From Anaerolineae bacterium (lineage in GTDB: Bacteria; Chloroflexota; Anaerolineae; CG2-30-64-16), in NCBI GenBank assembly GCA_025454565.1, contig JALOOE010000014.1, positions 1-27,223 on the forward strand: a stretch of DNA of 27,223 nucleotides, in the 5' to 3' direction. Each line of letters starts with the position of its first letter. Positions within the stretch are counted from its first letter, which is position 1. A program made the position numbers and the translations under genes. This document shows, one piece after another, positions 7,513 to 23,930 of this stretch. The notes under the pieces were generated by a model that worked only from the letters and a program-made list of their open reading frames with translations, had not been told where the DNA came from and did no database searches.

Positions 7513-7541
7513 TTGACAGCCTGCTTTCTTAAGGGTAGAAT
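7513..7541 (+). promoter_or_regulatory. Sigma70 promoter heading the catabolic cluster
   Basis: TTGACA (7513-7518), 17 nt, TAGAAT (7536-7541). Confidence 0.85.
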
Positions 7542-7549
7542 TTACCTAC

Positions 7550-7582
7550 TCATCAATGATGAGCGTGGTGCACCATTGATGA
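7550..7582. promoter_or_regulatory. Candidate operator (inverted repeat) just downstream of the predicted transcription start
   Basis: TCATCAATG-N15-CATTGATGA, perfect 9-bp arms. Confidence 0.5.
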
Positions 7583-7629
7583 GCTTCAAGACCGAAGTCA
7601 CCTCAATTGAGTCGCAAGGGCGTACTGAC

Positions 7630-8442
7630 ATGACAAGAATGAATCCGCAAGATGGCGTGCGTGCGACGCGAGCCGCACAGATTGAGCGCAGCGATGAGGC
7701 CGAGTATGTTGCTCTGCGCGAACTGAGAACCAACCCGGCGCCCGTGGGATGTTGGCGCATCAAAGCGGTTCTGCACGAGGCCGGCATCGAGATGAGTGAA
7801 GCGACGGCTGGACGGCTGCTGAAGGAGTTCGACTCGCGCGGGCTGACGAGCGTGGTAGGCGCCAAAGGGCGCATTCTCACAAGAGAGGGCGAGCGCCGCG
7901 CCGACAACCTCGAGACCCTGCGGCGTCGCTGGACCTATCAAGATGAGCTGATGGAAGCCATTCGCGCCGAGAAGATCAAGGATATCGAAGACCTCCTCGT
8001 CGCCAGGCGGGCAGTGGAAATCGAAACCGCTCGGTTGGCGGCGCTCCATGCATCCGACGCAGAAATCGAGCAAGTCAAGACTGCTGTCCAGGCGCTCAAG
8101 GATTATTGGCTGGGGGTAGGCGGGGAACGCAATCAGAATCCGGTCATCCACAAGATCATCGCCAAAACCTCCGGCAATCGCGTGTTCGACGCCCTTGTCA
8201 ACCTGCTATATGAGAACAACGAACTGGCACGCACTCTGTGGACCATCCAGCGGGTGATGAAAGCCCTCGATCCTGAAGAGCACGACGACATCCTCGCTGC
8301 GATTGCGGCGCATGACCCGGAACGCGCCGCCACCGCCATGCGCACGCACTTCGACCGGCTGCTCGACGTGGTCAAGCGCTACGGTGAAACGCACACTGAG
8401 CCGCAGGCCGCGATCCAAACCGATGCTGCGCTGACCATGTAG
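7630..8442 (+). CDS. Transcriptional regulator: N-terminal winged helix plus FCD (FadR C-terminal) ligand-binding domain; start uncertain (7579, 7630 or 7639)
   Basis: PVGCWRIKAVL.EAGIEMSEATAGRLLKEFDSRGLT..VG.KGRILT.EG resembles the NrpR/RNase R-type wHTH. FCD-like segments follow: IEDLLVARRAVE...ARLAA, IHKIIAKTSGNRV, EEHDDILAAIAAHDPERAATAMRTH. Confidence 0.8.
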   Translation: MTRMNPQDGVRATRAAQIERSDEAEYVALRELRTNPAPVGCWRIKAVLHEAGIEMSEATAGRLLKEFDSRGLTSVVGAKGRILTREGERRADNLETLRRRWTYQDELMEAIRAEKIKDIEDLLVARRAVEIETARLAALHASDAEIEQVKTAVQALKDYWLGVGGERNQNPVIHKIIAKTSGNRVFDALVNLLYENNELARTLWTIQRVMKALDPEEHDDILAAIAAHDPERAATAMRTHFDRLLDVVKRYGETHTEPQAAIQTDAALTM

Positions 8443-8450
8443 AGGGCGTC

Positions 8451-9491
8451 ATGCAATACACACACCTGGGCCGCAGCGGCGTGACGGTCAGCCGTCTGTG
8501 TCTTGGCACTATGAATTTCGGTGGGGCGGCCGACGAACGGGAAAGTTACGCGATCATGGATCGCGCACTTGAGTTGGGGATCAACTTCTTCGACACGGCC
8601 GATGTATACGGCAACCCGCAGCGCAAGGGGCTGACCGAGGCGCTGATCGGCCGCTGGTTTGCCCAGGGCGGTGGGCGGCGCGAGCGGATCGTCCTGGCAA
8701 CCAAGCTCTTCAGCCCGATCGGCCCCGAGATCAATGATCGCGGCCTGTCCGCCTATCATATCCGCCGTGCCTGCGAAGGCAGCCTGCGCAGGCTGCAAAC
8801 CGACCACATTGACCTCTATCAGATGCACCATATTGATCGCGGCCGGCCCACGACCAGCCAATTGGATTGGTTCGGCGCCGAGCGCGAGCTGGTCTTCCCC
8901 GCGCATCTCGATCCTGCACCGCCGTGGGCAGAGATCTGGCAGGGGATGGAACAGGCGATGCGCGAAGGCAAGATCACCTATGTCGGCAGCAGCAACTTCG
9001 CGGGATGGAACATCGCCCAGGCCAATGAGCGGGCGCGCGGCCGCGGGCTGATCGGTCTGGTGTCGGAACAGAGCGTTTACAGCCTGGCGAAGCGCACCGT
9101 CGAGCTGGAAGTCATCCCGGCCTGTCGCGCCTATGGCGTCGGGTTGTTGCCGTGGAGTCCCCTTGCCGGCGGCTTGCTCGCCGGCGGCCTGGCGCAGGCC
9201 GAAGCGGGCAGCCGCCGCGCGCACAAGAAACTCACACCTGATCAGCAGACGCGAGTGGAGCAGTATGAGGCGTTGTGCCGCGATTTTGGCGAGGAGCCGG
9301 CCGTCGTGGCCCTGGCCTGGCTGTTGCACAATCCGGTCGTGACGGCGCCTGTGATCGGCCCCCGGACGGTGGCGCAACTGGAAGGCGCCGTGAAGGCGCT
9401 GAGCGTGAAGTTGGACGGCGAGACGCTCGACCGGCTGGACAGGATCTGGCCGGGGCCGGGCGGTCAGGCGCCGGAAGCCTACGCCTGGTGA
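8451..9491 (+). CDS. Aldo/keto reductase
   Basis: MQYTHLGRSGVTVSRLCLGTMNFG; catalytic tetrad in DTADVYG, LATK and YQMH; GSLRRLQTDHIDLY, YVGSSNFAG, EQSVYSL, PWSPLAGGLL, PVIGPRT. Confidence 0.93.
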   Translation: MQYTHLGRSGVTVSRLCLGTMNFGGAADERESYAIMDRALELGINFFDTADVYGNPQRKGLTEALIGRWFAQGGGRRERIVLATKLFSPIGPEINDRGLSAYHIRRACEGSLRRLQTDHIDLYQMHHIDRGRPTTSQLDWFGAERELVFPAHLDPAPPWAEIWQGMEQAMREGKITYVGSSNFAGWNIAQANERARGRGLIGLVSEQSVYSLAKRTVELEVIPACRAYGVGLLPWSPLAGGLLAGGLAQAEAGSRRAHKKLTPDQQTRVEQYEALCRDFGEEPAVVALAWLLHNPVVTAPVIGPRTVAQLEGAVKALSVKLDGETLDRLDRIWPGPGGQAPEAYAW

Positions 9492-9528
9492 ACACAACCC
9501 TAATCGACAGGTCGGTGGAGCAGCGAGG

Positions 9529-11778
9529 ATGAACGAAACGACTCTGCGCGAGCTCGGCGAGTGGGCCGCGCTCGGCTTCTACGAAGGGATCGATCTCCCC
9601 CGACCGCGCGGCTATGGCCTGGCCTACCGCCGGCTCTACGAGAACATGTCGATCGCCATCTCGCCGGGACGATACCTGTTTCCGTTCGAACCGCTGCCGC
9701 ACGCGCGGACATGGACGGAGCATGGCGTGTGGACGGCCACCAGCCTGATCCTCGATCACAACCACCACTGCGGACTGCGCGTCAACGACCTCATCGCGGC
9801 CGAGCGCAAACAGCAGTTCCCGCAGCACGCAGCCTTCATCGACGCCTTGACCGCCGACCTCAGGCGCCGGCTCCCCCACTTCGGCGGCTACACCCACAGC
9901 AACCCCGACATGCGCCGTGTGGTGAACGAGGGCTTTGCGGCAATGGTCGCCGAGCTGGACACCGAGCTGGCGCACGTCCAGGCCGGGCAGAACGGGGCCG
10001 GACCGGGCACGCTCGACCTGCTGCTGGCGCTCAAAGATTACGCGGTCGGTGTGGCGGCCTTCCACGGCCGCGCCAGCCAGACGATCCGGCAGGCCGCAGA
10101 CCGGGCGATTGATCCTGACCAACGCCGCAAACTGGCCCTGATCGCCGATGCCTTCGCCCGCTGCTTCGTGACCCCGGCCACCAGCTTCCTGGAGGGCCTG
10201 CTCGCCGTCCATTTCACCTGGCTGCTCGATGGATGCGACAGCATCGGCCGCTTCGACCAGGCGTTGGGACCGCTGTTCGAGCGCGACCTGCAAGAGGGCA
10301 GGTTGGATATCGGCTTCGCCCGCGAACTTCTGGATGAGCTATGGGGCGATTTCGAGCGGTTCAACGGCTGGAACATGCAGATCGGCGGCTTCCGGCCCGA
10401 CGGCGCCGACGGCTGCAACGCGCTCACGCTGGAGTGTATCGCGGCGTGCCAGCGCAACCACCATCGCCGGCCCAACGTCGCGCTGCGCATCACCACGCAG
10501 ACGCCCGATGAGGTTGTCGAGGCTGCGCTGCACGCGCTCGCCGAAGGCAGCGGCCGGCCCGCGCTGTACAACGACGATCTCTACGTGCGCACGCTGGCTG
10601 GCCTCGACCTCGGCCTCACCCGGGAGGACGCGACCGAGATCGGCTTCGGCGGCTGCACCGAGACGATGATCGCCGGCCTCTCCAACTGCGGCAGCCTGGA
10701 AGGGGAGATCAATTTGGCGCTGGCGCTCGAACTGGCGTTATTCGACGGCCGCGATCCGCTGACCGGCAGGCAGGAAGGCCCGCACACCGGCCGTTTCGAG
10801 GAGATGGCGACCTACGCTGAATTCGAGGCCGCGGTGCGCAGGCAGATCCAATACCTGACGGACGGATTCGTCGCGCGCAGCAAAGATGCGCTGGCCCGCC
10901 GCTTCGCCGAGGGGGATCCCAAGCTGCCGCGCACCTTCTTCACGCGCGATTGCGTGAAACGCCACCGCTCGTTCGAAGCCGGCGGCGCGCGGTACAACTG
11001 GGCGGTGGTGTCGTACCAGGGGATCGCGAATCTGATCGATGGCCTGGCCGCGGTGCGGACGTGCGTGTTCGAAAGCCCAGACCTCACCCCCCCATCCCCC
11101 TCTCTTGCGAGGAAAGGAGGGGCAGGCGCAGCAGTTTCCAGGACCGAGCTCCTGGCCGCGCTGCGCGCGGACTTCGATGGCTACGAACTGCTGCGCCGCC
11201 GCTTACAGGCCGCGCCCAAGTTCGGCAACGACGACCCGAGCGTCGACGACCCCGGCGCCGACATCATCCGCTTCGCCTGGGAGCAGCTCCTGGCGCACGA
11301 GACCCCGCGCGGGGGCCGCTACCTGCCCTCGTGCATCCTTTTCGTCACCTACTACGCCGCGGGCCTGCAGATCGGCGCGACGCCCGATGGCCGGTGCGGC
11401 CAGGAGGTGCTGGCCGATTCAGTGGGCCCGGCCCAGGGCCGCGACCGCCACGGGCCGACCGCCATGCTCAACTCCGTGGCGAAGCTGCCGCTCCACCTGG
11501 CAGCCGGCACCCCGGTGCTCAACATCCGCTTCACCAGGACACTGCTGGACGAGCCGGAATCGCTCGGCAAGGTCGTCCAGCTCATCCGCGTCTTCTTCGC
11601 GCGCGGCGGGATGCAGATCCAGCTCTCGGTGCTCGACCGCGAGGCGCTTCTGGCCGCGCAGCGCGAGCCTGAAAAACATCGCGATATCATCGTACGCGTG
11701 GGCGGCTACAGCGAGTATTTCGTCAACCTGAACCCGGCACTCCAGGCGAGCGTGATTGCGCGCGCGGAGCACCACTGA
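9529..11778 (+). CDS. Glycyl radical enzyme (PFL-like superfamily), substrate unknown
   Basis: C-terminal radical motif IIVRVGGYSEYFVNL (RVGGY at 11695-11709), thiyl Cys loop FGGCTE (Cys at 10654-10656), plus SIGRFDQAL, PKFGNDD..VD, GATPDGR, GPTAMLNSV.KL, LNIRF, GGMQIQ. 749 aa. Confidence 0.9.
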   Translation: MNETTLRELGEWAALGFYEGIDLPRPRGYGLAYRRLYENMSIAISPGRYLFPFEPLPHARTWTEHGVWTATSLILDHNHHCGLRVNDLIAAERKQQFPQHAAFIDALTADLRRRLPHFGGYTHSNPDMRRVVNEGFAAMVAELDTELAHVQAGQNGAGPGTLDLLLALKDYAVGVAAFHGRASQTIRQAADRAIDPDQRRKLALIADAFARCFVTPATSFLEGLLAVHFTWLLDGCDSIGRFDQALGPLFERDLQEGRLDIGFARELLDELWGDFERFNGWNMQIGGFRPDGADGCNALTLECIAACQRNHHRRPNVALRITTQTPDEVVEAALHALAEGSGRPALYNDDLYVRTLAGLDLGLTREDATEIGFGGCTETMIAGLSNCGSLEGEINLALALELALFDGRDPLTGRQEGPHTGRFEEMATYAEFEAAVRRQIQYLTDGFVARSKDALARRFAEGDPKLPRTFFTRDCVKRHRSFEAGGARYNWAVVSYQGIANLIDGLAAVRTCVFESPDLTPPSPSLARKGGAGAAVSRTELLAALRADFDGYELLRRRLQAAPKFGNDDPSVDDPGADIIRFAWEQLLAHETPRGGRYLPSCILFVTYYAAGLQIGATPDGRCGQEVLADSVGPAQGRDRHGPTAMLNSVAKLPLHLAAGTPVLNIRFTRTLLDEPESLGKVVQLIRVFFARGGMQIQLSVLDREALLAAQREPEKHRDIIVRVGGYSEYFVNLNPALQASVIARAEHH
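11081..11122. repeat. Palindromic CCCCTCTC...GAGGGG-type element inserted in frame in the GRE gene
   Basis: ACCTCACCCCCCCATCCCCCTCTCTTGCGAGGAAAGGAGGGG encodes DLTPPSPSLARKGG between the conserved VFE and (V)SRTELLAAL segments. Confidence 0.72.
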
Positions 11779-11840
11779 AGGATGCCCCAACGTCCCAACA
11801 ACCCAACATCCGCTTCTCTTGGTCGCTAGAAGGTGCATAA

Positions 11841-12788
11841 GTGATTACGCAGACAGGCCCGTTACAAACCTCGAAGCCATTTTCTGCAAGTGCGTCCGCC
11901 CACCGACCGCGAAGCCATCTGCACCGCCGCGAGGCCATCGAAGGCTTTCTGATGGCGCTCCCGTGGCTGATCGGCTTTCTTCTCTTTACGGCGGGGCCGA
12001 TTACGGCCGCTCTGCTCTTGGGGTTCACTGAGTGGGACATTATCTCACCGCCCAAGTTCGTGGGCTTAGAGAACTGGGTTTCGATATTCACCGAAGACGA
12101 GCTCTTCAGGAAATCCGCAGTCGTCACGCTCACCTATGCGGCGATGGCCGTGCCGCTGCATGTGATCCTGGGCTTTGTCCTCGCCTCGCTCCTGAATAGC
12201 AAAGTGCCGGGCACCAACACCTTTCGTGCAATCTATTATCTGCCGACCGTTTTGCCGCTTGTCGCTACCGCGGTGCTATGGAGTTGGGTACTGAATCCGG
12301 AATTCGGGCTCGTGAACTACATGCTCTCGTTGATCGGCGTTCAAGGACCCGGCTGGCTGACGGATGAGAATTGGTCGCTGCCATCCATTGTGCTGATGAA
12401 CCTGAACTTCATCGGCATCACGGTGGTCATCATGTTGGCCGGTCTGCAACGGGTGCCGCAAGAGATGTATGAAGCCGCGCAACTCGATGGCGCCAACCGC
12501 CGCCAGATTCTGCGTTATGTCACAATTCCCTTCATGTCACCCGTCATCTTCTTCACCATCATCCTCAACCTAAACAACTCGTTCCAGACCTTTACACAGG
12601 CCTATGTGATGACCAACGGCGGGCCGGGCACCTCAACACTGTTCTATATGCTCTATTTGTTCAACAACGCTTTCCGCTATTTCAAAATGGGCTATGCTAA
12701 TGCGTTGGCGCTGGTCTTGTTCCTGACGATCATCACCATCACCATCACGCAGTTCCGCCTCAGCCGTCTCTGGGTCTATTCGGACTAG
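11841..12788 (+). CDS. Carbohydrate ABC transporter permease 1 (CUT1, MalF/UgpA-like)
   Basis: GFLMALPWLIGFLLF, FVGLENW, FRAIYYLP.VLP.VA, LAGLQRVPQEMYEAAQLDGA (EAA motif), VMTNGGP, FRYFKMGYANA. GTG start with AGAAGG upstream. Confidence 0.92.
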   Translation: MITQTGPLQTSKPFSASASAHRPRSHLHRREAIEGFLMALPWLIGFLLFTAGPITAALLLGFTEWDIISPPKFVGLENWVSIFTEDELFRKSAVVTLTYAAMAVPLHVILGFVLASLLNSKVPGTNTFRAIYYLPTVLPLVATAVLWSWVLNPEFGLVNYMLSLIGVQGPGWLTDENWSLPSIVLMNLNFIGITVVIMLAGLQRVPQEMYEAAQLDGANRRQILRYVTIPFMSPVIFFTIILNLNNSFQTFTQAYVMTNGGPGTSTLFYMLYLFNNAFRYFKMGYANALALVLFLTIITITITQFRLSRLWVYSD

Positions 12789-12798
12789 CGGAGGAAAG

Positions 12799-13623
12799 AT
12801 GACAGCCAAATCTATGACAACCGCGTCATGGGGCAGTGCTCGGCAGCTACGTAATGCCTTGCAGCGCGGGGCCGTCCTGCTCTTGTTGATCCTCTTCTCG
12901 GGACCTTTCATTCTGCCGCTCTTCTGGCTGCTGTCAACCGCGTTGAAAGCCCCTGAGCAAGTCTATGTCTATCCGCCGCAATGGATTCCGAACCCCATCC
13001 GGCTGGAAAACTTCCGCGAAGCCTGGACCGCGGCGCCGTTCGGTCGCTATCTCGTGAACACGATCATCACGACGGCGCTACCGCTCATCGGTGAGGTTTT
13101 TGTTTCGGCGTGTGTGGCCTATTCCTTCGCGCGCACCCGCTGGCCGGGACGTGACCTGGCTTTCTCGCTGTGTGTTGCAACGATGTTGATGCCCTGGGTC
13201 GCCACATTCATCCCGGTGTTCCTGTTGTTCAAGACATTGGGCTGGGTTAATACCTTTCTGCCGTTGATTGTGCCATCGTACTTCGGTATCCCCTTCTACA
13301 TCTTCCTGCTGCGGCAGTTTATGCTCACGCTGCCGCACGAGCTGGAGGACGCGGCCCGCATGGATGGCGCCAACACCTTCCAAATCTTCGGACGCATCAT
13401 CCTGCCGTTACTCGGGCCATCGTTGGCTACGGTGGCGATCTTCTCATTCATGAATCACTGGAACAGCTTCATGGGACCGATGATCTACCTGCACAGCCAG
13501 AAGCTCAAAACCCTTTCGCTGGGCCTGGCAACCTTCGAGTCGGCGATGATGGGCACAGGTGGCTCGTATGCGCTGGTCAGTTCGCGGCTACATCTGCTGA
13601 TGGCCGCCGCAGTGTGGTCATGA
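12799..13623 (+). CDS. Carbohydrate ABC transporter permease 2 (MalG-like); last TM helix apparently missing
   Basis: PQWIP, FGRYLVNT, AYSFAR, FLLRQFMLTLPHELEDAARMDGA (EAA motif), WNSFMGPMIYL. Ends abruptly at LMAAAVWS*. Confidence 0.85.
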   Translation: MTAKSMTTASWGSARQLRNALQRGAVLLLLILFSGPFILPLFWLLSTALKAPEQVYVYPPQWIPNPIRLENFREAWTAAPFGRYLVNTIITTALPLIGEVFVSACVAYSFARTRWPGRDLAFSLCVATMLMPWVATFIPVFLLFKTLGWVNTFLPLIVPSYFGIPFYIFLLRQFMLTLPHELEDAARMDGANTFQIFGRIILPLLGPSLATVAIFSFMNHWNSFMGPMIYLHSQKLKTLSLGLATFESAMMGTGGSYALVSSRLHLLMAAAVWS

Positions 13624-13720
13624 AAGGAGGCGCTTCTGCCCAAAACGACGAAGCAGTCCACAAACCTGAATGAACCGAATCCGATCAGCAAAATCACACT
13701 ACCTCAAAAGGAGAGGCATC

Positions 13721-15132
13721 ATGAATCCCAAGAAAAGCTTGTCCCGTCGTCAATTCCTGGTGGGTGTTCAGGCTGCGGCCGTAACCGCAGTCCTGGCGAG
13801 CTGCGCTCCGCAGCCCACTCCCGCGCCGGCGGCAGCCCCCAAGCCGGCCGCGACCGATGCTGCTGCGCCCAAGCCGGCGGCCACCACCGCGCCCGCGCCG
13901 AAGGCGAAGCAGATCGTGCGGTTCACCATGTTCGGGCACCCGAACATGGTCGAGCAGATGGTGCCGCTCTTCAATATGAAGAATCCAGATGTGGAGGTGC
14001 AGTTCGAGCGCAGTGAATCCCAAGGGTATTACGAAAAGCTGCCGGCAGCCATCGCTGGCGGCGGCGCGTGGGATGTCTTCCGCCTGGGTCTCGACTGGGG
14101 CCAACAGTACGGCGGCAAAAATGCCCTGGCGGATATCACCGACCTGGTCAAAGCGGATACGAAGTATCCGGCCAGCGGCTATGTGGATGGTCTGCTGGAC
14201 GCGTGGAAGGTGGCCGAGAAGCAGATCGGCATCCCCGGCTGGACGAACAACTTCTGGCTGTACTACAACAAGAAGTTGTTCGATGAAGCCGGCATCGCCT
14301 ATCCCACGACCAAGACGACGTGGGATGAGTATGTCGAGATGACGAAAAAGCTGACCAAGCGCGACGGCAATACGATCACACAATATGGCGCGGCGGCAAT
14401 ACGATCACACAATATGGCGCGGCGACCTGGGGCGCTTCGATCACGCGCTGCCGGGTGGATGTCTGGAACGCCGGCGCGCCCTTCTGGTACAATGACGATT
14501 TGAAGTCCGTCTCCTTCACCAATCCCACTGCGGTCAAAGTGATGCAGGATGAGGCCGATCTGATGAACGTCCACAAGGTGCATCCCAGCCCGCTGAACCC
14601 GCCCAGCTCGCCGGCTACCATCCTGTCGAAAAAGGTTGCTACTGAAATGATGGGCGACTGGTATGCCTGGGATCAGGTTTCCTCCTGGAGCCCCGATTTC
14701 CAGGTGACGATGCTGCCGCTGCGCGGCGACAAGCGCACCAACCTCTATGTGCATGATGGGTTATGCATCAATGCCCAGTCGAAAGTCCGAGATGCTGCCT
14801 ACAAGTGGATCTCGTGGTGGTCAGCCGATCCTGAGTCGTGGAACATCCAGGGGCCTGTGGTCTTCCCCACCACCAAGAAGATGTACGAAGATCCAACGCT
14901 GCGGGCACTGTGGGCCCGGTCGCCGCGGCCACAGACGATGATTGACCTGGCCATGGAGCACGTGAAATACGCTAAGGTCAACCGGTTGGGGATCGAAGCG
15001 GCGCAGATGACTAACGAGGTCTGGAATCCGGAGATCGACAACCTCTGGCGCGCCAAGGTGACGGCTCAGCAGGCGATGGATACCATCCAGACCAAAGCCA
15101 CCGATCTGATGAAAAAGACGCGCGGCTCTTGA
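13721..15132 (+). pseudogene. Sugar ABC transporter substrate-binding lipoprotein (Tat signal), split by a 29-nt tandem duplication
   Basis: ATG 13721 with GGAGAGG SD. SRRQFL twin-arginine motif, lipobox LASC, PAT linker, WLYYNKKLFDEAGIAYP..TWDEY. Continues in another frame (DVWNAGAPFW...KATDLMKKTRGS*). Removing one repeat copy gives a single 460-aa ORF. Confidence 0.88.
14365..14422 (+). repeat. Perfect 29-nt tandem duplication
   Basis: CGGCAATACGATCACACAATATGGCGCGG at 14365-14393 and again at 14394-14422. Confidence 0.97.
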
Positions 15133-15152
15133 GGCAGACCGAGTCACTGACG

Positions 15153-16041: not shown

Positions 16042-16953
16042 TTGAGTCCATCACTGCGCGGTTACTACGCCATCGCCAATACGCCATTCACCGCGGATGG
16101 CGCCATCATCTGGGCTGATCTCGAACGCGAGTGGGATTTCATCGCCCATTCCGGCAGCCACGGCCTGGTCTGGCCGGTCAACGACAGCGAGTTCTCGCTC
16201 CTGTCCTATCGGGAGCGCGTCGAGGGATTTCGGCGCGTCGTGCAGGTCGTCGGCAACCGCATCCCGGTGGTGCTGGGGGTAGCCGACACCCATGCGTCTG
16301 GCGCAGCCGACTATGCCGAGGCAGCGGCCAAAGCCGGCGCCGATCTGGTGGTCGCCATGCCGCCCTGGCACACCAAGCTCGCCACGCGGCCGCAATATAT
16401 CGCCTACTACCGCGCCATCGCCGACGCCTGCGGCCTGCCCATTTGCATCCAGAACGTCTTCCCGCCGATGGGTTCCGATCTCTCGGCCGAGACGGTAGCA
16501 GCTATCTGTGATGGCGTGCCGCAGGTGCAGTGCATCAAAGAGGAGCGCCTGCCGCAAGGGGACGCGGTGTCGAGCATCATTGACCAAAAAATCCCACAAC
16601 TGAAGGCGATCTTCGGCGGCGGCTGGTGTTTCAGCATGATCGCCCACCACAAGCGAGGCGCGGCCGGCAACATGGCGAGCAGCGCCGTCCCGGAGGTGCA
16701 TGCCCAAATCTGGGATCTCATGGAAGCGGGCCGCGAAGACGAGGCGCGCAAGATTCAGACCCTGTTGAACGAGCTGATGCGCGCTGAAACGTCCATACAA
16801 ACTCTGCACGGCGTCAAGCAATCGCTCGTCCTGCGCGGCATTTTTACTTCGGTCGCCATGCGCAATATTGCGCCGCGGGTGATCGACGCCCCCTACCTGC
16901 GCGAGCTCGAATGGGCGCTGTCGCTCCTGCAACCCTATCTGAAGCCGATCTGA
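16042..16953 (+). CDS. Dihydrodipicolinate synthase (DapA) family lyase/dehydratase
   Basis: TTG start 6 nt after GGAGG. AIANTPFTADG, SEFSLLSYRER, RIPVVLGV, AKAGADLVVAMPP, YYRAIADACGLPICIQN, Schiff-base Lys in CIKEE. Confidence 0.88.
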   Translation: MSPSLRGYYAIANTPFTADGAIIWADLEREWDFIAHSGSHGLVWPVNDSEFSLLSYRERVEGFRRVVQVVGNRIPVVLGVADTHASGAADYAEAAAKAGADLVVAMPPWHTKLATRPQYIAYYRAIADACGLPICIQNVFPPMGSDLSAETVAAICDGVPQVQCIKEERLPQGDAVSSIIDQKIPQLKAIFGGGWCFSMIAHHKRGAAGNMASSAVPEVHAQIWDLMEAGREDEARKIQTLLNELMRAETSIQTLHGVKQSLVLRGIFTSVAMRNIAPRVIDAPYLRELEWALSLLQPYLKPI

Positions 16954-16964: not shown

Positions 16965-18215
16965 ATGCACGAACTAAAGCTGCTGACAAAAGCCTGGCTC
17001 GGCGACGAGGAGACGAGCTTCCCGCTGCCGGCGGGTTGGGAGGCCACGATCTACGACGCGCCCGGCGCGCCGATGCTCCCCGCGGCCGCCATCGGCGAAG
17101 CACTGGCGCGTCCACTGGGCTGCCGGCGCCTGGCCGAAACGGCCGCGGGCAAGCGCAGCGCGGCGATCGTCGTGGACGATCTGACGCGGCCGACGCCGGC
17201 CGGCGAGGTGATCCCGTTCATCCTCGCCGAGCTTCACGCCGCCGGGATGCCGGACGAGGGCATTGCTTTCGTGGTCGGCGTGGGGACGCACCGGTCGGTC
17301 ACCGCCGAGGAGGCCGCCAGGAAGGTGGGCGCCGACATCGCAGCCCGTTATCCGGTCATCTGCCACGAAGCGTTCAGTGGCGACCTGATCGGGCTGGGGA
17401 ACCTGGACGACGGCACGCCGCTCTATCTTTCCGAGGTGGTCGTACGTGCGGATGTCCGCATCTTCATCACCAGTGTGATCCCACACAGCGGCGCCGGCTT
17501 CGGCGGCGGCGCCAAGCTGGTGTTGCCTGGGGTGGCCGGCTATGTGAGCACGCACTACAACCATCGGCAGTTGCCCAAGCGGCCGCGGGGCTTGCTGGCC
17601 CACGCAAGCCCCGACGATCTGCGCGACGGCGCGGTGAAGGCGGCGCGGCGGCTGGGCGTAGACATGAGTGTGAACGTGGTCTGTGACACGCGCCGCCGGA
17701 TCGTCGGCGTCTTCGCCGGCGATATCGAGGAGGCGCACGATGCGGCCTGCCGCTATGGTTACGGGGTCTACGAGACGCCGATCCCGAAGGCCGTTGCCCA
17801 GGCGACCGACATCCTCATCATTGACAGCTATCCTCAGGACAACGATACGCAGTGCTTCTACAAGTCGCTCTGGCCGCGCGACTATTTCCCCAACGCGTAT
17901 CACGTGATGATCAACCCCTGTACTGACCGCATCTGGTATCACGGGCTGACGCTGGGGATGGATTATGCGCGCTTCCTGCGGCTGGAGGCGCAGCGGCCGC
18001 CGGCTCCGCCGCGACCCAGGCCCCCGATCGGGCAGCGGGGGCAACTGCTCACCCTTTCGGAGGGCTATCCGCCCGAAGAATACTACAAACGCTATCCCGA
18101 CGCCGTGCTGTACACCGCGTGGCAGGAACTGATGGATGACCTGGCCCGTGTCTGCCCGCAGGCGAAAGTGGCGGTGATCCCATGTGCGCCGCTCCAGATG
18201 ATCCGTCTGGAGTGA
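16965..18215 (+). CDS. LarA-family (nickel-pincer-nucleotide-dependent) 2-hydroxyacid racemase/epimerase
   Basis: IVVDDLTRPTP, GVGTHR, PHSGAGFGGGAKLVLPGVAG....HYNH. The His, Lys(+10) and His(+16 from Lys) spacing equals that of His174/Lys184/His200 in L. plantarum LarA. Confidence 0.88.
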   Translation: MHELKLLTKAWLGDEETSFPLPAGWEATIYDAPGAPMLPAAAIGEALARPLGCRRLAETAAGKRSAAIVVDDLTRPTPAGEVIPFILAELHAAGMPDEGIAFVVGVGTHRSVTAEEAARKVGADIAARYPVICHEAFSGDLIGLGNLDDGTPLYLSEVVVRADVRIFITSVIPHSGAGFGGGAKLVLPGVAGYVSTHYNHRQLPKRPRGLLAHASPDDLRDGAVKAARRLGVDMSVNVVCDTRRRIVGVFAGDIEEAHDAACRYGYGVYETPIPKAVAQATDILIIDSYPQDNDTQCFYKSLWPRDYFPNAYHVMINPCTDRIWYHGLTLGMDYARFLRLEAQRPPAPPRPRPPIGQRGQLLTLSEGYPPEEYYKRYPDAVLYTAWQELMDDLARVCPQAKVAVIPCAPLQMIRLE

Positions 18216-18231: not shown

Positions 18232-18570
18232 ATGAAGTGGCAAGCGATTGTGATCCATCCCAGCGATGACGTCGCCACGGCGATCACCGAACTGAAAGCC
18301 GGTGCATGCGTGCAGGTCGAAGTGACGGGGCGTTTGCTGGAGGTCACGCTGCGGGACGACATCGCGTTCGGGCACAAGTTCGCATTGCATGATCTGAACG
18401 CGGGCGACCAGATTCTCAAATACGGAATGCCTATCCTCAAGGCACAGCAGCCGATCCGCGCCGGCGAGTGGGTGCATACGCACAATGGTCGCAGCGACCG
18501 GTGGGGACCGCAGAACGAAGATAGCGTCATCTTCATGGCGCCGACTGGGCCCCAAAAGGAGCCAGCATGA
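18232..18570 (+). CDS. UxaA/GarD-family dehydratase small subunit (SAF domain)
   Basis: IHPSDDVATA, IAFGHKFAL.DL..GD.ILKYG.PI..A...I.AGEWVHTHN. Overlaps the large subunit by 4 nt (ATGA). Confidence 0.9.
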   Translation: MKWQAIVIHPSDDVATAITELKAGACVQVEVTGRLLEVTLRDDIAFGHKFALHDLNAGDQILKYGMPILKAQQPIRAGEWVHTHNGRSDRWGPQNEDSVIFMAPTGPQKEPA

Positions 18571-19697
18571 CACAAGAGATCCTGGGCTATCTGAGGCCCG
18601 ATGGGCAGATCGGCATCCGCAACAAGGTGGCAATCATCTTCACGGTGGATTGTTCGAAGTTCGTCGCCGAGAAGATCCACCGGCTGTTCCCTGAACAGAC
18701 GCAGGTATTCGGGATCCCCAGAGGGTGCGTCTTCAAGCCGGGGGCAGTCAACAAGATCGTGGCCTTGGGCAAACATTCGCAGTACGGGGGCGTCCTGGTG
18801 GTCGGGTTGACGTGCGAGGCCACAGAAGCCTACACCGTAGCCAACCGCATCGCCGAATCGGGGAAAGCCGTCGAAGCGATCAAGATCGGTGACGACGGCG
18901 GCGATCTGAAGGCGATCGAAAAGGGCAGCCGCATCATGCTGCGCCTCTTGCAGCACACCTCGTTGGCCGAACGCGTCAAGCTGACGCCGGCCGATCTGAT
19001 CGTGGGCGCCGAGTGCGGCGGCTCCGATGCGACCTCCGGCATCGCAGCCAATCCGGCGGTCGGCGTGGCGGCCGATATGCTGATTGACGCTGGCGGCACC
19101 TTCATGCACTCGGAGGAAAAAGAACTGATGGGGTGCGGCGACGTGTTGGCGGCGCGCGCGATCAACGGTGCGGTGGCGCACGACATCAAGAGCCTGATCG
19201 AGAAGGTGGAGCAGGAATGCTTTGCCATCGGCCGGTTCGGTTACGGCTTCGGCAATCGTCTGGGCGGGCTGAGCAGCATCGAGGAGAAGTCATATGGCGC
19301 GTTAGCGAAGTCGGGCAGCCGGCCGTTGCAGGGCGTGCTGCACACCTTCCAGCGGCCCCCGCATAAGGGTTACTGGATCCAGTACGGCGAGCCAGACGCC
19401 GTCACCTTCCACGGCGATCCCGATGGTCTGAACCAGCGCATGGCCTGCGGCGCGCACCTGAATCTGTTCACGACGGGCTGTGGCTCGACAACCGGCTCCC
19501 TCGGCCCTGTGATCAAGGTGATCGCGAACCCGCACCGCCGCCAGTTGATCGAAGACAACGCTGATGTTGATGCGTCGGGCATCATCTTGGGCGAGAAGAC
19601 GATCCAGGAGGTGGGGCGGGAGATCTATGCCGAAATCCTGGCCGTGGCCGTAGGCAAGCTGACCAAGTCCGAGATCCATGGGCACTATGAGGCATAG
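18567..19697 (+). CDS. UxaA/GarD-family sugar-acid dehydratase large subunit
   Basis: GYLRPDGQIGIRN, GGVLVVGLTCE, GAECGGSDATSGIAANPAVG..AD, GN.LGGLSSIEEKS.G, GAHLNLFTTGCGS, PVIKV, DVDASGI, GKLTKSE..GH. Confidence 0.88.
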   Translation: MTQEILGYLRPDGQIGIRNKVAIIFTVDCSKFVAEKIHRLFPEQTQVFGIPRGCVFKPGAVNKIVALGKHSQYGGVLVVGLTCEATEAYTVANRIAESGKAVEAIKIGDDGGDLKAIEKGSRIMLRLLQHTSLAERVKLTPADLIVGAECGGSDATSGIAANPAVGVAADMLIDAGGTFMHSEEKELMGCGDVLAARAINGAVAHDIKSLIEKVEQECFAIGRFGYGFGNRLGGLSSIEEKSYGALAKSGSRPLQGVLHTFQRPPHKGYWIQYGEPDAVTFHGDPDGLNQRMACGAHLNLFTTGCGSTTGSLGPVIKVIANPHRRQLIEDNADVDASGIILGEKTIQEVGREIYAEILAVAVGKLTKSEIHGHYEA

Positions 19698-19727
19698 GAC
19701 GCGGCGTTGGAGCCGTTGGATGGCACA

Positions 19728-20678
19728 ATGACCCATCTTCAAATCGTTGGCCTGGGCCAAGCGACTCTGGATGTGTTGCTGCGACTGCGGGACTTGCCGA
19801 CTTGGGAGACTTACACGCGGCTACAAGGGTTCGGTTTGGAGGGCGGCGGCCCGGCGGCGACGGCTCTGGTGGCTGCTGCCAAACTGGGCGCGCGCGTGGG
19901 CTTCGTCGGCACGGCCGGCAATGACGCCGCCGCCGAGAGCAAGCTGCGCTCGATGCGCGCATGCGGCGTGGATCTGAGCCGGCTGGTGGTGCGTGCGGCG
20001 CCGGAAGGGCAGGTGACGGGGGTCTTCGTCCACAGCGAAACCGGCGAACGCACTTTCGCCTTGATGACCGGGCCAGAGGAGCACTTGTTGCGGGTTGACG
20101 AACTGGATCGCGACTACATCGAATCAGCGGACTATCTTCACCTGGATGGGTTTCATGCACAAGCCGCGTTGCAGGCCGCCCGGTGGATGCGCGCGGCGGG
20201 CAAACAGGTGGTGCTCGACGGACATCGGACGACGGGCCCGATCAAGCCGCACATGGCCGCATTGGTCGAGCACGTCGATATCCTGATCAGCGGCGCTGGT
20301 TTCGTGCAGGCGCTCACCGGCATCTCAGATACGCTCGCAGCCGGCGCGGCTGCGCTCCGCTTTGGCCCTCGTCTCGTCGTGCAGACGGAGGGCGCCGGCG
20401 GCAGCTACACCGTCACAGCGCACGATCGTTTTCACACGCCGGCCTTTGAGGTGGCCGTTCTCGACACCACGGGAGCGGGCGATGTGTTTCATGGCGCGTA
20501 TATCGTGGGACTGCTACATGGCTGGGATCTACGTGATATCGCGCAATTTGCGACCGCGGTCGCTGCGATCAAATGCGGCAAGCTTGGGGGACGCGCGGGC
20601 ATTCCATCCCTCAAGGAAACGCAGGTATTTCTGAAAGCTCGTGGCGTCGAACTGGGCGTCTCCGGCGCCACCACATGA
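19728..20678 (+). CDS. PfkB-family carbohydrate kinase
   Basis: GGGPAATALVAAAKLGARVGFVG..GND and PAFEVAVLDTTGAGDVFHGAY...AAIKC.KLGGRAGIP. Confidence 0.92.
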   Translation: MTHLQIVGLGQATLDVLLRLRDLPTWETYTRLQGFGLEGGGPAATALVAAAKLGARVGFVGTAGNDAAAESKLRSMRACGVDLSRLVVRAAPEGQVTGVFVHSETGERTFALMTGPEEHLLRVDELDRDYIESADYLHLDGFHAQAALQAARWMRAAGKQVVLDGHRTTGPIKPHMAALVEHVDILISGAGFVQALTGISDTLAAGAAALRFGPRLVVQTEGAGGSYTVTAHDRFHTPAFEVAVLDTTGAGDVFHGAYIVGLLHGWDLRDIAQFATAVAAIKCGKLGGRAGIPSLKETQVFLKARGVELGVSGATT

Positions 20679-20692
20679 GGTAAAGAGGCAGC

Positions 20693-21556
20693 ATGGCACT
20701 TGACTCGATGTTGACAGAATTGAAAAAGGCGCAGCAGAACCGTTACGGCATCCCCTCTTTCAACACATTCGATTCGCGCGGCGCCGACGGCATCTTCGCA
20801 GCGTTGGCGGAGAAGCGCGCACCGGGCATCGTGGCGATCTATTCCGGGGTGTTCGACCAGCCGCAAGGCGGCGCGCTGACGGCCTACGTCCGCAAGCTGG
20901 CCGAGCAGGCGCCAGGGCCGGTGGCGGTGCTTCTGGATCATGGCGCCAGCTTCGAACACTGCGTCAAGGCGCTGACGCTCGGTTGCACCGATGTGATGTT
21001 CGACGGCTCCAAGCTCCCGCTCGAGGAGAACATCGCGACGACCAAACTGGTTGTGCGAGCAGCGCACAAGGTGGGCGCGTCAGTCGAGGCCGAGCTGGGG
21101 CATGTGGGCCGCGGATCAGAGTATCGAAGCTTCGGATTGCTGCGCAAGGGCTTCACCAAGCCGGATGAAGTCGAACGCTTCGTGGCTGAGACGGGCGTGG
21201 ACGCGCTGGCGATCGCCATCGGTACGGCACACGGCAAGTACGAATGTGAGCCGCAACTGGCGCTCGACTTGTTGACCGACATCCGGCAGCGCGTCGCTGT
21301 GCCGCTGGTGCTGCACGGCGGCTCAGGATTGGCGGCCGAGCAGTTCCGCGCGGCGATCGCCGGCGGCATCTCTAAGGTCAATATTTTCACAGCGATGGCG
21401 GAGGCTGCAACCGAAAGCATGGTGGATGCGGCGCGGGCCGATGCGCCTTCCTACTTCGGGATCACGACCAGGATCACCGAAGCATTCAAGGAACGCTGCG
21501 CGGCGCATCTGGACATCTTCGGCGCCACTGGACGCGCCGCTGATGGACGGCTCTAA
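20693..21556 (+). CDS. fba: Class II (metal-dependent) ketose-bisphosphate aldolase
   Basis: YGIPSFN, LLDHG, TDVMFDGS.LP.EEN, VEAELGHVG, AIAIGTAHGKY, PLVLHGGSG, GISKVNI. Could be a fructose- or tagatose-bisphosphate type or act on another substrate. Confidence 0.9.
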   Translation: MALDSMLTELKKAQQNRYGIPSFNTFDSRGADGIFAALAEKRAPGIVAIYSGVFDQPQGGALTAYVRKLAEQAPGPVAVLLDHGASFEHCVKALTLGCTDVMFDGSKLPLEENIATTKLVVRAAHKVGASVEAELGHVGRGSEYRSFGLLRKGFTKPDEVERFVAETGVDALAIAIGTAHGKYECEPQLALDLLTDIRQRVAVPLVLHGGSGLAAEQFRAAIAGGISKVNIFTAMAEAATESMVDAARADAPSYFGITTRITEAFKERCAAHLDIFGATGRAADGRL

Positions 21557-21566
21557 GGATGGAGAC

Positions 21567-22778
21567 ATGAATACCTTGCGCGCTATCCACTCGGCCTTCG
21601 AGCGTAGCGAAGGCATCCTGCGGCTGGCCCCGAACTGGGTGCCCCGGCTCAGCAACACGCCCGGCCGACGCCTGCGCCTGCACCCGGACGACTACTTCAC
21701 ATTGGGAATGCAGCGCGGGGCTATCAAAGAGCGCTGGTTTTGCTCCAGCGTACACGCCAACGGCGCGGCGGCGCCCGCGGATGAGGGCATGAGCTACGTC
21801 GCACTATCCGACCGCCAGGAAGATAAGCGCCTGTTCCGGGATGTCGTGGACGAGTTGGGGCCGGCGCTCATCGGCGATGAGCTATACCGGCGTCATGGCA
21901 CCTGGCCGATGTTCAGCAAATTCTATGACTATGACGGGCGGCTAGCGTTCCACATCCACCCCGACGATGCAGCCTCGGCCCAGGTGGGCATGTTGGGTAA
22001 GCCGGAGGCGTACTACTTTCCGTTCCAACTCAACGATCATCTCGGTCAGTTTCCCGTCACCTACTTCGGTTTCGACCCGGATGTTACGCGTGAGCAGGTC
22101 AAGGAGCGCTTGCTGCAATTCGAGTCGGCGGACAATCGCATCACTGAGCTTTCCAGGGGGTATCGGATCCAACTGGGCACCGGCTGGTATACTCCGCCCG
22201 GCGTGGTTCATGCGCCCGGTTCTGTGCTGACCTACGAGCCGCAGTGCAACAGCGATATCGGCTCGGCGCAGGAGAACGTGGTGAACGGCGTGGTCGTGCC
22301 CTATCGCTCCCTGGTGAGCAGTTGCCCGGACGACAAGAAGCACGATATTGACTACATCATGAGCTTGATGGACTGGGAGAGGAACGTTGATCCCCATTAT
22401 CGGCGGCGCTATTTCCGGCCGTCGATCCCCTGCCCAACCGTTGACGACCGCTACCGCGAACAGTGGATAACTTATGGGAATGATCATTTCGGCGCGAAGG
22501 AGTTGACCGTACTGCCCGGCCAGAGCGTCGTGGTGAAGGATCGCGTGGCGTTCGGCTGCATCCTGATTCAAGGGCACGGCCAGTTCGGGGTGCATGACGC
22601 CGAAGCAGCCATCATGCTTCGCTATGGGCAGATGAGCGCCGACGAGTATTTTGTGAGTGAAGCGGCCGCCCAGGCCGGCATCCCCATCACAAACCACAGC
22701 CGCTGGGAGCCGATGGTCTTGCTGAAGCACTTCGCCGCGAACCACCCCCACATGCCGCCGGCGCCCAGCGATGACTGA
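21567..22778 (+). CDS. Conserved protein with phosphomannose-isomerase-like cupin motifs (putative sugar or sugar-phosphate isomerase)
   Basis: GILRLAPNWVPR...PGRRLRLHPDDY, WPMFSKFYD, FHIHP...GKPEAYYF and GTGWY.PPGVVHAPGS..TYEPQ give the H-x-H/E/H metal-ligand pattern of PMI-type cupins. Confidence 0.62.
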   Translation: MNTLRAIHSAFERSEGILRLAPNWVPRLSNTPGRRLRLHPDDYFTLGMQRGAIKERWFCSSVHANGAAAPADEGMSYVALSDRQEDKRLFRDVVDELGPALIGDELYRRHGTWPMFSKFYDYDGRLAFHIHPDDAASAQVGMLGKPEAYYFPFQLNDHLGQFPVTYFGFDPDVTREQVKERLLQFESADNRITELSRGYRIQLGTGWYTPPGVVHAPGSVLTYEPQCNSDIGSAQENVVNGVVVPYRSLVSSCPDDKKHDIDYIMSLMDWERNVDPHYRRRYFRPSIPCPTVDDRYREQWITYGNDHFGAKELTVLPGQSVVVKDRVAFGCILIQGHGQFGVHDAEAAIMLRYGQMSADEYFVSEAAAQAGIPITNHSRWEPMVLLKHFAANHPHMPPAPSDD

Positions 22779-22789
22779 AGGAGGCGCCG

Positions 22790-23878
22790 ATGCGCATCAC
22801 TGAACAGCCCTGGGGTAGAACACAGGATGGCCAGGCGGTTAGCCTCTACACGCTCAGTAATGCGAACGGGATGCAGGCTCAGATCGCCAACTATGGCGGC
22901 GCCGTCGTCTCACTCACCGCGCCGGATCGTCACGGACGTTGGATTGACGCGGTCTTGGGCTTCGACACGCTGGTCAGCTATCTCACGCCCAAGCCGCATC
23001 CCTATCTGGGGGTCGTAGTAGGCCGCTATGGCAACCGTATCGCCAACGGCCGGTTCACGCTGAACGGCGTGGCGTATGTCCTGGCGCAAAACAATGGCCT
23101 GAATCACCTGCATGGCGGGATCAATGGTTTCGACCGCGTGGTGTGGCAGGCGCGCAGCATGTCGAGCGCCGAGGGGCCGCGCCTGGAAATGGCTTACTTG
23201 AGTAAGGATGGCGAAGAAGGCTACCCCGGCAACCTATCGGTCACCTTGAGCTATACTTTGACCAGCGACAACGCGCTCAAGATCGCGTATGATGCCATCA
23301 CCGACAAAGACACGGTGCTCAACCTCACCAACCACTCATATTTCAATCTGGCGGGCGCGGCCGCAGGCGATATCCTGGGGCATGAAATCCAGATCAATGC
23401 CGATTACTTCACACCCGTGACCGGGGACTCGATCCCGACCGGGGAGCTGCGGGCCGTCAAAGGCACACCGATGGATTTCACCCGGCGCACGGCCATCGGC
23501 CTGCGTATTGGTCAGGACGACGAGCAGTTGGCGTTTGGTGGTGGGTACGATCACAATTGGGTGCTCAATGATCGCGATTGGCGGACCGAGAAAGCGGTCG
23601 AATTGTACGAGCCGGCGACCGGTCGCGTGATGGAAGTCTACACATCCGAGCCAGGCGTGCAGTTGTACACGGGCAACAACCTGGCGGGCAACGTGATCGG
23701 TCGGGGCGGAATCACGTACCACAAACACCAGGGGCTCTGCCTGGAGACGCAGCACTTCCCTGACTCGCCCCACCATCCGCACTTCCCATGCACGGTGCTC
23801 CGATCGGGCGAGCGCTATACCTCCACCACGATCTACAAATTCCTGGCAAGCTATAGTGCGTCAGATAAAGATTCGTAG
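22790..23878 (+). CDS. galM: Aldose 1-epimerase (mutarotase)
   Basis: VGRYGNRIA, NHLHGG..GFD, DGEEGYPGNL, NLTNHSYFNL, GYDHNW, PGVQLYTGN, CLETQHFPDSP. Confidence 0.93.
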   Translation: MRITEQPWGRTQDGQAVSLYTLSNANGMQAQIANYGGAVVSLTAPDRHGRWIDAVLGFDTLVSYLTPKPHPYLGVVVGRYGNRIANGRFTLNGVAYVLAQNNGLNHLHGGINGFDRVVWQARSMSSAEGPRLEMAYLSKDGEEGYPGNLSVTLSYTLTSDNALKIAYDAITDKDTVLNLTNHSYFNLAGAAAGDILGHEIQINADYFTPVTGDSIPTGELRAVKGTPMDFTRRTAIGLRIGQDDEQLAFGGGYDHNWVLNDRDWRTEKAVELYEPATGRVMEVYTSEPGVQLYTGNNLAGNVIGRGGITYHKHQGLCLETQHFPDSPHHPHFPCTVLRSGERYTSTTIYKFLASYSASDKDS

Positions 23879-23930
23879 GGGGCAGCGCCTTGTGCCTGCC
23901 CTGGGCGATGCCACAAGGGATCGCCCCTAC
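23875..23930. repeat. GTAG-type REP doublet (REPIN-like inverted pair)
   Basis: GTAGGGGGCAGCGCCTTGTGCCTGCCC-T-GGGCGATGCCACAAGGGATCGCCCCTAC. Each half begins with GTAG on its own strand and carries an internal palindrome. Confidence 0.8.

Follow-up and report, generated by a model that had tools for sequence, protein, structure and literature searches.

The window analysed here, a stretch of 27,223 nucleotides (positions 1 to 27,223 of contig JALOOE010000014.1, GenBank assembly GCA_025454565.1), comes from the metagenome-assembled genome (MAG) of an Anaerolineae bacterium and carries a cluster of 15 genes in which a glycyl-radical enzyme (GRE), a LarA-family nickel-pincer enzyme and a split UxaA-like dehydratase stand together with a kinase, an aldolase and a sugar importer. 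We refer to this MAG (4.1 Mb in 745 contigs, 70.6% complete) as the host genome; because it carries four GREs, two GRE activases and at least five aldehyde:ferredoxin oxidoreductases (AFORs) we regard the organism as an anaerobe, and the stretch was recovered in four wetland-metagenome runs. All 15 genes lie on the plus strand and, with the promoter-like site ahead of them, occupy positions 7513-23878 (Table 1). They stand in the order listed in the earlier note, that is, regulator, aldo-keto reductase (AKR), GRE, two permeases, binding protein, beta-propeller, DapA-like enzyme, LarA-like enzyme, the two dehydratase subunits, kinase, aldolase, phosphomannose isomerase (PMI)-like protein and mutarotase, and once gene starts had been corrected against homologues the successive gaps were 8, 37, 62, 10, 46, -4, 1, 11, 16, -4, 9, 14, 10 and 11 nt. 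The sole strong plus-strand promoter-like site ahead of the cluster lies at 7513-7541. Position 7513 is its -35 box, and the regulator open reading frame (ORF) begins near 7630. Terminator-like matches within the cluster numbered 14, with 10.8 +/- 3.6 expected from shuffled sequences, and all of them fell within ORFs. Thus the description given earlier, one promoter followed by 15 co-oriented, closely spaced genes without an internal terminator, was borne out. So were the family assignments: Pfam and NCBIfam profiles supported 13 of the 15, and for the two Pfam-blank ORFs, g07 and g13, AlphaFold2 models matched to the PDB returned the beta-propeller and PMI-like folds.

A matching operon is carried by three related contigs, L052, L057 and L053, at about 90%, 87% and 75% DNA identity, respectively. 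L052 is colinear with the window over its whole reach. The L057 cluster begins with the regulator, the AKR, two permeases, an intact binding protein, the DapA-like and the LarA-like enzyme, continues with the SAF and UxaA subunits, the PfkB kinase, the class II aldolase and the PMI-like protein, and then carries an AFOR. The most distant relative, L053, holds regulator, PMI-like, AKR, transporter, DapA-like, LarA-like, SAF and UxaA genes with an aldolase on the opposite strand and is without the PfkB kinase, which among the three relatives is present in L057. The acid set of genes (LarA-like, split UxaA, DapA-like) is colinear in all three; kinase, aldolase and PMI-like genes come after it in L057, and L053 has the aldolase and the PMI-like gene. 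The regulator is 86% identical to the 268-aa regulator heading the L057 cluster, and permease 1 is 93-97% identical in L052 and L057.

Neither the GRE nor the propeller is present in any of the three related clusters. The junctions are exact: positions 9494-11820 of the window, a cassette that holds the GRE ORF, are missing in the relatives between the AKR stop codon and the permease ribosome-binding site (RBS), and positions 15133-16028 stand where L052 and L057 have an inverted-repeat spacer of 160-190 nt. At the far end, homology to L057, the sole related contig extending to the mutarotase end, stops right after the PMI-like gene, with an AFOR there and the mutarotase in the window. The GRE, the propeller and the mutarotase thus do not co-occur with the other cluster genes in the relatives, the outcome that the earlier note had named as refuting its reading. 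Contigs from other samples span all four junctions (AKR/GRE, GRE/permease, binding protein/propeller and propeller/DapA-like), the propeller junctions being bridged in runs X1, X2 and X4, and because these independent contigs bridge them the mosaic is not an assembly chimera. Since all three relatives, the most distant included, lack both GRE and propeller, insertion is more parsimonious than deletion. On this comparative evidence, we conclude that an older operon of about 12 genes, itself conserved, recently received the GRE as a single inserted gene. Glycyl-radical, nickel-pincer and sugar-acid chemistry thus stand together as a mosaic particular to this lineage and do not make up a new pathway that is conserved. 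The earlier note had joined the glycyl-radical chemistry to the rest of the cluster, a link that could not be upheld; its two enzyme sets, one acting on sugars in the manner of the Embden-Meyerhof-Parnas (EMP) pathway and one on sugar acids, are real and mostly travel together in the relatives, and it is the radical step that falls outside the conserved set. The core is itself rare: LarA orthologues above 55% identity are limited to a handful of metagenome contigs, and the sole other sampled genome of the window's family is without the GRE, a LarA orthologue and a UxaA orthologue.

Table 1. Coordinates of the cluster genes and associated features in the window.
Feature	Position	Strand	Remarks
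Promoter-like site, TTGACA-17 nt-TAGAAT	7513..7541	+	11/12 consensus positions; consensus match alone
GntR/FadR-type regulator, FCD ligand domain	7630..8442	+	ATG at 7630 or 7639; FCD 63 bits
Aldo-keto reductase, AKR12D-like aldehyde reductase	8451..9491	+	Aldo_ket_red 228 bits; in 3/3 related clusters
Putatively inserted GRE cassette	9494..11820	+	35-nt leader with RBS, ORF 9529-11778 (749 aa), 42-nt trailer
CUT1 ABC permease 1	11841..12788	+	BPD_transp_1; nearest named models UgpA/GlcT
CUT1 ABC permease 2	12799..13623	+	BPD_transp_1; nearest named models UgpE/GlcU
Sugar-binding protein, SBP_bac_1 in two frames, Tat-type signal	13670..15132	+	Frame broken as assembled
Putatively inserted five-bladed beta-propeller g07 (303 aa), GH130/GH43 superfamily-like	15129..16040	+	Predicted fold, no Pfam match
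DHDPS/NAL-family Schiff-base enzyme (DapA-like)	16042..16953	+	DHDPS 99 bits; keto-deoxy-acid aldolase or dehydratase
LarA-family nickel-pincer nucleotide (NPN) 2-hydroxyacid racemase/epimerase	16965..18215	+	Lar_N 161 bits
SAF small subunit, split UxaA/GarD-type dehydratase	18232..18570	+	SAF domain; 4-nt overlap with large subunit
Large subunit, UxaA/GarD-type sugar-acid dehydratase	18567..19697	+	GD_AH_second and GD_AH_C; GarD 6u7l 132 bits
PfkB-family sugar kinase, YihV/ribokinase-like	19707..20678	+	Best PDB match sulfofructose kinase 7ag6, 136 bits
Class II ketose-(bis)phosphate aldolase	20693..21556	+	F_bP_aldolase 270 bits; below all NCBIfam equivalog cut-offs
PMI type I-fold cupin g13 (403 aa), putative metal-dependent aldose-ketose isomerase	21567..22778	+	Predicted fold
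Galactose-mutarotase-type aldose 1-epimerase (Aldose_epim)	22790..23878	+	Lineage-specific; AFOR at this position in L057
REP/MITE-like palindromic intergenic repeat at cluster end	23851..23957	.	107 nt, nested palindrome

The GRE contains PFL-like and Gly_radical domains. Its glycyl-radical motif RVGGYS aligns with RVAGYS of glycerol dehydratase and HypD, its cysteine loop GGCTE aligns with GCVE (Cys433/Glu435) of 1r8w, and one histidine aligns with His164 of glycerol dehydratase; because these features are kept, we place the enzyme with the dehydratase/eliminase GREs. The glycyl motif, the GCTE loop and the His164 equivalent are invariant in 21 family members from several phyla, as is a DGCDS motif specific to the family. 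In glycerol dehydratase, His164, His281/Ser282 and Asp447 (1r8w numbering) are substrate-binding positions. Glycerol dehydratase was also the best solved relative, at 253 bits, and kinship to YbiW and PflD, which the earlier note had brought up, is not favoured at about 200 bits. The GRE scored 327 bits with TIGR01774 (cut-off 678), 244 and 237 bits with the HpsG/HpfG models (cut-off 1000) and 198 bits with IslA (7kq3). No radical-SAM activase is present in the window: the two activases of the host lie on contigs C267 and C464, each contig with another GRE, and in the genomes of homologues activases were found only away from the genes of this clade. At third codon positions the GRE has a GC content of 0.87, above the 0.73-0.84 of the other cluster genes but close to the host housekeeping range (0.73-0.85), and the value was not taken to indicate transfer.

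The GRE family is large, consisting of proteins of about 730 aa at 58-83% identity whose source names include Planctomycetota, Lentisphaerae, Armatimonadota and Victivallales, and across phyla the clade has a mean column identity of 68%. The closest genome-assigned member, 83% identical, is that of the MAG G402, which has no LarA-like orthologue (best match 34%); a relative at 83% identity lies in an uncultured Anaerolineales MAG. The distribution is patchy: no orthologue at E <= 1e-150 turned up among 400 further genomes sampled across the phylum of the window, and in one planctomycete order 3 of 99 genomes have one. Six distinct neighbourhoods of the family included sulfatases, glycoside hydrolases (GH) of families GH4, GH35, GH38 and GH43, a fucosidase, a heparinase-like protein and giant beta-helix proteins, and held neither an activase nor a core gene of the cluster. 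In three of these six the gene of the clade (~732 aa) immediately adjoins sulfatase genes (L019:12210-15375, L020:6004-7407 and L013:7136-9064), the hosts being annotated as Anaerolineales, Eubacteriales and one unassigned metagenome contig. We know of no described GRE-sulfatase association, and a literature search on GRE, sulfatase and fucoidan returned nothing relevant.

Turning to the acid set, the LarA-like enzyme, aligned to LarA of L. plantarum (8ezf), keeps Asp72, Arg75, the catalytic His108 and His174, the NPN-tethering Lys184 and the nickel ligand His200. Its best NCBIfam subfamily was malate racemase (LarAH6, NF052593), at 210 bits against a cut-off of 500, and judged by its sequence the enzyme represents a new LarA subfamily. 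LarC (277 bits) and LarE (266 bits), both over their cut-offs, lie at contig ends elsewhere in the host genome. LarA homologues at 44-49% identity stand in unrelated contexts and for this reason are uninformative on the operon. A second LarA-family gene, 39% identical to that of the cluster, is present in the host genome at C369:1451-2194. The DapA-like enzyme scored nearly alike with DHDPS 3pud (74.5 bits) and with the L-2-keto-3-deoxyarabonate (L-KDA) dehydratase 7c0c (73.8 bits). It keeps the Schiff-base lysine, has glutamine in place of the tyrosine of YNVP and carries a glutamate two residues past the lysine, and because the glutamine and the glutamate are both common to 7c0c the enzyme may dehydrate, not cleave, its substrate. 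The DapA-type lyase proposed earlier thus stands as a member of the DHDPS family with its Schiff-base lysine, and may instead be a keto-deoxy-acid dehydratase in its activity.

The division of the dehydratase into SAF and UxaA subunits is kept in L053, L057, L058 and L060. Six homologues share four cysteines of the large subunit, which line up with the cysteines of a full-length UxaA paralogue; four conserved cysteines mark the UxaA/GarD sugar-acid dehydratases and are missing in SuyAB (PMC6336799). UxaA homologues at 68-70% identity keep the split and have other neighbours. A metagenome scan with the large subunit returned one 1.8-kb contig only, and when the dehydratase was compared with plasmids by tblastn, the matches all lay below 40% identity, were labelled 'UxaA family hydrolase' and included none with a SuyB label. 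At L058:15427-16929 a 70%-identical SAF/UxaA pair occurs with two CUT1 transporters, a short-chain dehydrogenase/reductase and a B12-binding radical SAM protein, which makes L058 another pairing of a sugar-acid dehydratase with radical chemistry.

The kinase scored 106 bits with ribokinase, below its match to sulfofructose kinase. It keeps Asp13 and the GAGD motif, and the positions of YihV Lys27, Asn109 and Arg138 are occupied by Tyr36, Leu119 and Phe149; because the Lys-Asn-Arg triad is Tyr-Leu-Phe here, a canonical sulfosugar kinase is excluded, and the exchanged triad weakly hints at an uncharged C6 substituent, perhaps that of a deoxy sugar. The aldolase scored 174 bits with 7ncc, 161 with YdjI, 154 with 4to8 and 149 with SqiA (8q58), and the AKR was matched best by 8jwk/8xr2 at 363 bits. 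The latter structures are of AKRtyl, of the subfamily AKR12D (PMC10923870). The AKR and the aldolase, and likewise the mutarotase, are generic members of their families. The model of g13 (predicted local distance difference test, pLDDT, 95.1) reached a TM score of about 0.6 to 1zx5, 1qwr and ManA at 10-19% identity, with no Pfam PMI match; the protein belongs to an unnamed family of 753 representatives at E<1e-10, in whose alignment His121, His123 and Glu216 are invariant. For g07 (pLDDT 87.5) the best PDB matches were GH130 beta-1,2-mannoside phosphorylases (TM 0.68-0.70, 14% identity), followed by GH43. Homologues of g07 at about 60% identity occur in unrelated contexts. Those at L100:5023-15022 (G310) and in other genomes of genus g64 stand downstream of an Opp-type ABC transporter and upstream of GFO/IDH/MocA oxidoreductases, a xylose-isomerase-like TIM-barrel protein and a radical SAM protein, a carbohydrate context of another kind that has no cluster genes.

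The break in the binding protein is a 29-nt tandem duplication at 14359-14424. Deleting one copy reopens a frame of about 477 codons, in line with the repaired protein of which the earlier note had spoken, and both L057 (460 aa) and L053 (451 aa) encode an unbroken protein. None of the four runs has contigs that cover the duplicated region, and 29 is a common assembler k-mer size; for these two reasons the duplication may have arisen in assembly. The remaining ORFs are intact, with catalytic residues kept. In L052, two in-frame TAG codons occur within 8.5 kb, one at 461-463 in the AKR (GAG in the window) and one at 4225-4227 in the binding protein, where both the window and L057 read CAG; nonsense mutations, sequencing errors or read-through could each account for them.

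We consider it probable that the cluster is an accreted operon for a rare sugar or sugar acid, made up of a conserved core with a ketose-phosphate and a non-phosphorylative acid branch and of a varying aldehyde sink. Starting from the observed gene content, insertion junctions, conservation pattern and catalytic motifs, we infer all substrates, the coupling of AKR and GRE, and the co-transcription of the genes. The core comprises the FCD regulator, the AKR, the CUT1 importer, the DHDPS/NAL enzyme, the LarA-type enzyme, the two-subunit UxaA/GarD dehydratase, the class II aldolase and the PMI-fold protein, with the PfkB kinase presumably added in the closer relatives, and it would import a neutral sugar or sugar acid and break it down by two routes. 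In one of these, an aldose would be converted to a ketose by the PMI-like protein, phosphorylated by the kinase and split by the aldolase into dihydroxyacetone phosphate and a short hydroxy-aldehyde. In the other, non-phosphorylative route a 2-hydroxy sugar acid would be epimerised by the LarA-like enzyme and dehydrated by the UxaA-type enzyme, after which the DapA-like enzyme would cleave or again dehydrate the keto-deoxy acid to yield an aldehyde or semialdehyde. The aldehyde sink would be the variable part, an AFOR in L057 and AKR plus GRE in the window, whose lineage would have gained three genes: the GRE directly past the AKR, the glycosidase-like propeller and the mutarotase. The AKR would reduce the aldehyde to a vicinal diol or polyol and the GRE, activated in trans by one of the two host activases, would dehydrate the product; it is plausible that the GRE acts after an aldehyde reductase in this way. 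At its entry, the pathway would be widened by the propeller and the mutarotase to take in a glycoside.

It is possible, if rather doubtful, that the window lineage has in this way linked an aldehyde reductase directly to a GRE from a widely transferred, uncharacterised clade (~732 aa; Planctomycetota, Lentisphaerota, Armatimonadota and Chloroflexota) whose usual place is in sulfated-glycan loci, and that the clade stands for a new radical-eliminase substrate class; a sugar would then pass through a hydroxy-aldehyde and a diol or polyol to radical dehydration, under a regulator shared with a new NPN-dependent sugar-acid epimerase. Several observations weigh against the accreted operon with its GRE-served sink. 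The binding protein is frameshifted as assembled, so that the importer may be dead; the cluster holds neither an ABC ATPase nor an activase; LarB was not found in the MAG, at 70.6% completeness; and every enzyme scored below the curated cut-off of each specific NCBIfam model. As to the GRE, equivalents of His281/Ser282 are missing, with His281-Ala286 falling in an alignment gap, and the Asp447 position aligns to Leu390, with Glu391 adjoining. Moreover, adjacency in one genome is the sole basis of the AKR-GRE coupling, and elsewhere the GRE family stands beside sulfatases and glycan-degrading enzymes with no orthologous AKR adjoining.

Were the 15 genes one integrated and selected pathway, the GRE would be essential and the GRE-less relatives would be secondary deletions. 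Fifteen co-directional genes with gaps of at most 62 nt behind one promoter-like site fit such a pathway, as do the undamaged neighbours of a GRE cassette that brings its own RBS and the presence of this form in several samples, but the absence of GRE and propeller from all three relatives, L053 included, the absence of a GRE orthologue from the other 400 genomes sampled from the phylum, the lack of a LarA-like orthologue in G402 and the absence of core genes from every GRE-family neighbourhood examined make us regard it as unlikely. Still less likely is a decaying or artefactual locus, that is, a mosaic created by mis-assembly of the MAG or an operon under loss. The fragmentation and incompleteness of the MAG, the frameshift of the binding protein in a region uncovered by the contigs of any run, and the TAG codons in the AKR and binding protein of L052 would agree with it; against this, contigs from other samples bridge all four insertion junctions, the other ORFs are intact with their catalytic residues, the L057 binding protein is intact, and the duplication, having the length of a common k-mer, could be an assembly error and no sign of decay.

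The last alternative, to which we give the smallest chance of all, is a sulfosugar cluster of the sulfoquinovose type, in which the mutarotase, isomerase, YihV-like kinase and SqiA-like aldolase would follow a hybrid sulfo-EMP route to sulfolactaldehyde, the AKR would supply dihydroxypropanesulfonate to a sulfonate-cleaving GRE, and a LarA-type sulfolactate racemase would feed a SuyAB-like lyase. Hybrid sulfo-EMP clusters with PfkB, class II aldolase and PF01263 mutarotase have been described (PMC10665668), and SuyAB is the sole heteromeric member of the UxaA/GarD superfamily (PMC6336799). The dehydratase does match the two-subunit layout of SuyAB. Among solved structures the kinase comes nearest to sulfofructose kinase of E. 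coli, with 136 bits where ribokinase gives 106, and the best LarA subfamily model is malate racemase, malate being a close analogue of sulfolactate. However, the YihV sulfonate triad Lys27/Asn109/Arg138 (PMC8006165) is Tyr/Leu/Phe here, and the large dehydratase subunit, unlike SuyAB, retains its four cysteines. The aldolase is no nearer to SqiA than to fructose-bisphosphate aldolases or YdjI, and the GRE, at 237-244 bits, lies far below the HpsG/HpfG cut-off of 1000. The mutarotase is of the GalM and not the YihR type, scoring 30 bits with an NCBIfam model that we take to be YihR. In addition, the cluster holds no sulfoquinovosidase, sulfolactaldehyde dehydrogenase or sulfite exporter, and a literature search found no paper tying LarA to sulfolactate. 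The sulfosugar reading was rejected on the kinase triad, the GalM-type mutarotase and the retained dehydratase cysteines.

As the earlier note had held, no described pathway has this combination of genes, none having matched at the level of orthology; the accreted operon does resemble several known systems in part. Non-phosphorylative sugar routes use UxaA/GarD-type dehydratases together with DHDPS/NAL keto-deoxy-pentonate dehydratases (Watanabe et al. 2019, PMC6336799). Like the cluster, such Weimberg/Dahms-type routes combine a four-cysteine UxaA/GarD dehydratase with a subsequent Schiff-base DHDPS/NAL enzyme, a GntR-type regulator and an ABC importer, and in L057 an aldehyde-oxidising enzyme follows as well; the cluster differs in its dehydratase split into SAF and catalytic subunits, in the LarA-family epimerase ahead of it, in having no sugar dehydrogenase or lactonase unless the AKR serves as one, and in its additional ketose-phosphate branch. 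LarA-family hexonate 2-epimerases, GntE1 and GntE2, have been found in gluconate/mannonate and uronate contexts (Desguin et al. 2020, PMC7583248). The cluster shares with them an NPN 2-hydroxyacid epimerase amid sugar-acid genes, with the catalytic and NPN residues all present. At 108-122 bits its LarA-like enzyme is about equidistant from lactate racemase, malate racemase and the 2yjg apoprotein, which is presumably GntE1. With the B12-independent glycerol/diol dehydratases (1r8w, 5i2a) the GRE has in common the glycyl motif, the Cys-x-Glu loop and the His164-aligned histidine, whereas its clade is about 100 residues shorter (732-749 aa), carries the family-specific DGCDS, has no adjoining activase or microcompartment genes and elsewhere resides in glycan-degradation loci. 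The PF01263 mutarotase, PF00294 kinase and PF01116 aldolase recall the sulfo-EMP and hybrid sulfo-EMP pathways (PMC8006165, PMC10665668, PMC9594981), but the isomerase has a PMI fold and is not YihS or SqvD, the sulfonate triad is not kept and a sulfoquinovosidase is missing. A trio of kinase, class II aldolase and AKR is also found in the ydj cluster of E. coli, YdjI being the second-best solved aldolase (161 bits); overall similarity is low, and YdjH and YdjG give weaker matches. There, YdjH is the PfkB kinase, YdjI the class II aldolase and YdjG the AKR, and to our knowledge the ydj cluster has no LarA, UxaA, DapA-like or GRE genes.

With its three chemistries not conserved as a combination, the cluster is a less striking finding than the earlier note held. 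Two leads stand out as the most useful: the new LarA subfamily of the conserved operon, and the GRE clade found in glycan-degradation loci. The LarA-family enzyme, fixed between the DapA-like enzyme and the split UxaA, offers a defined context for a new NPN-dependent sugar-acid epimerisation. In uncultured anaerobes the highly conserved GRE clade belongs to loci for polysaccharide degradation, and the reaction that it catalyses may be of importance for the anaerobic turnover of sulfated glycans in wetlands and sediments. The series of variants, with no sink gene, with an AFOR or with AKR and GRE, would represent operon accretion under way and suggests the step served by the GRE.

The flanks of the cluster are of a housekeeping kind, with a thiamine ABC transporter, thiamine pyrophosphokinase, LexA, methylpurine-DNA glycosylase, NudC and RsfS upstream and a deacetylase and an H+-PPase downstream on the minus strand. 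The 107-nt element that closes the cluster overlaps the final 28 nt of the mutarotase gene and has four further near-full copies at 88-97% identity on host contigs C489, C478, C254 and C458; since its copies recur on at least four other contigs it is a dispersed repeat of the repetitive extragenic palindromic (REP) or miniature inverted-repeat transposable element (MITE) type, and the terminal REP doublet noted earlier proved to be a genuine multi-copy palindromic repeat. Contig depth is raised at 23851-23957 in run X1, and at position 23909 the contigs of all four runs are two letters shorter than the window. Within positions 1-7400 of the window, one 566-aa ORF holds both the LexA and the methylpurine-DNA glycosylase domains and is probably two adjacent genes read as a single ORF.

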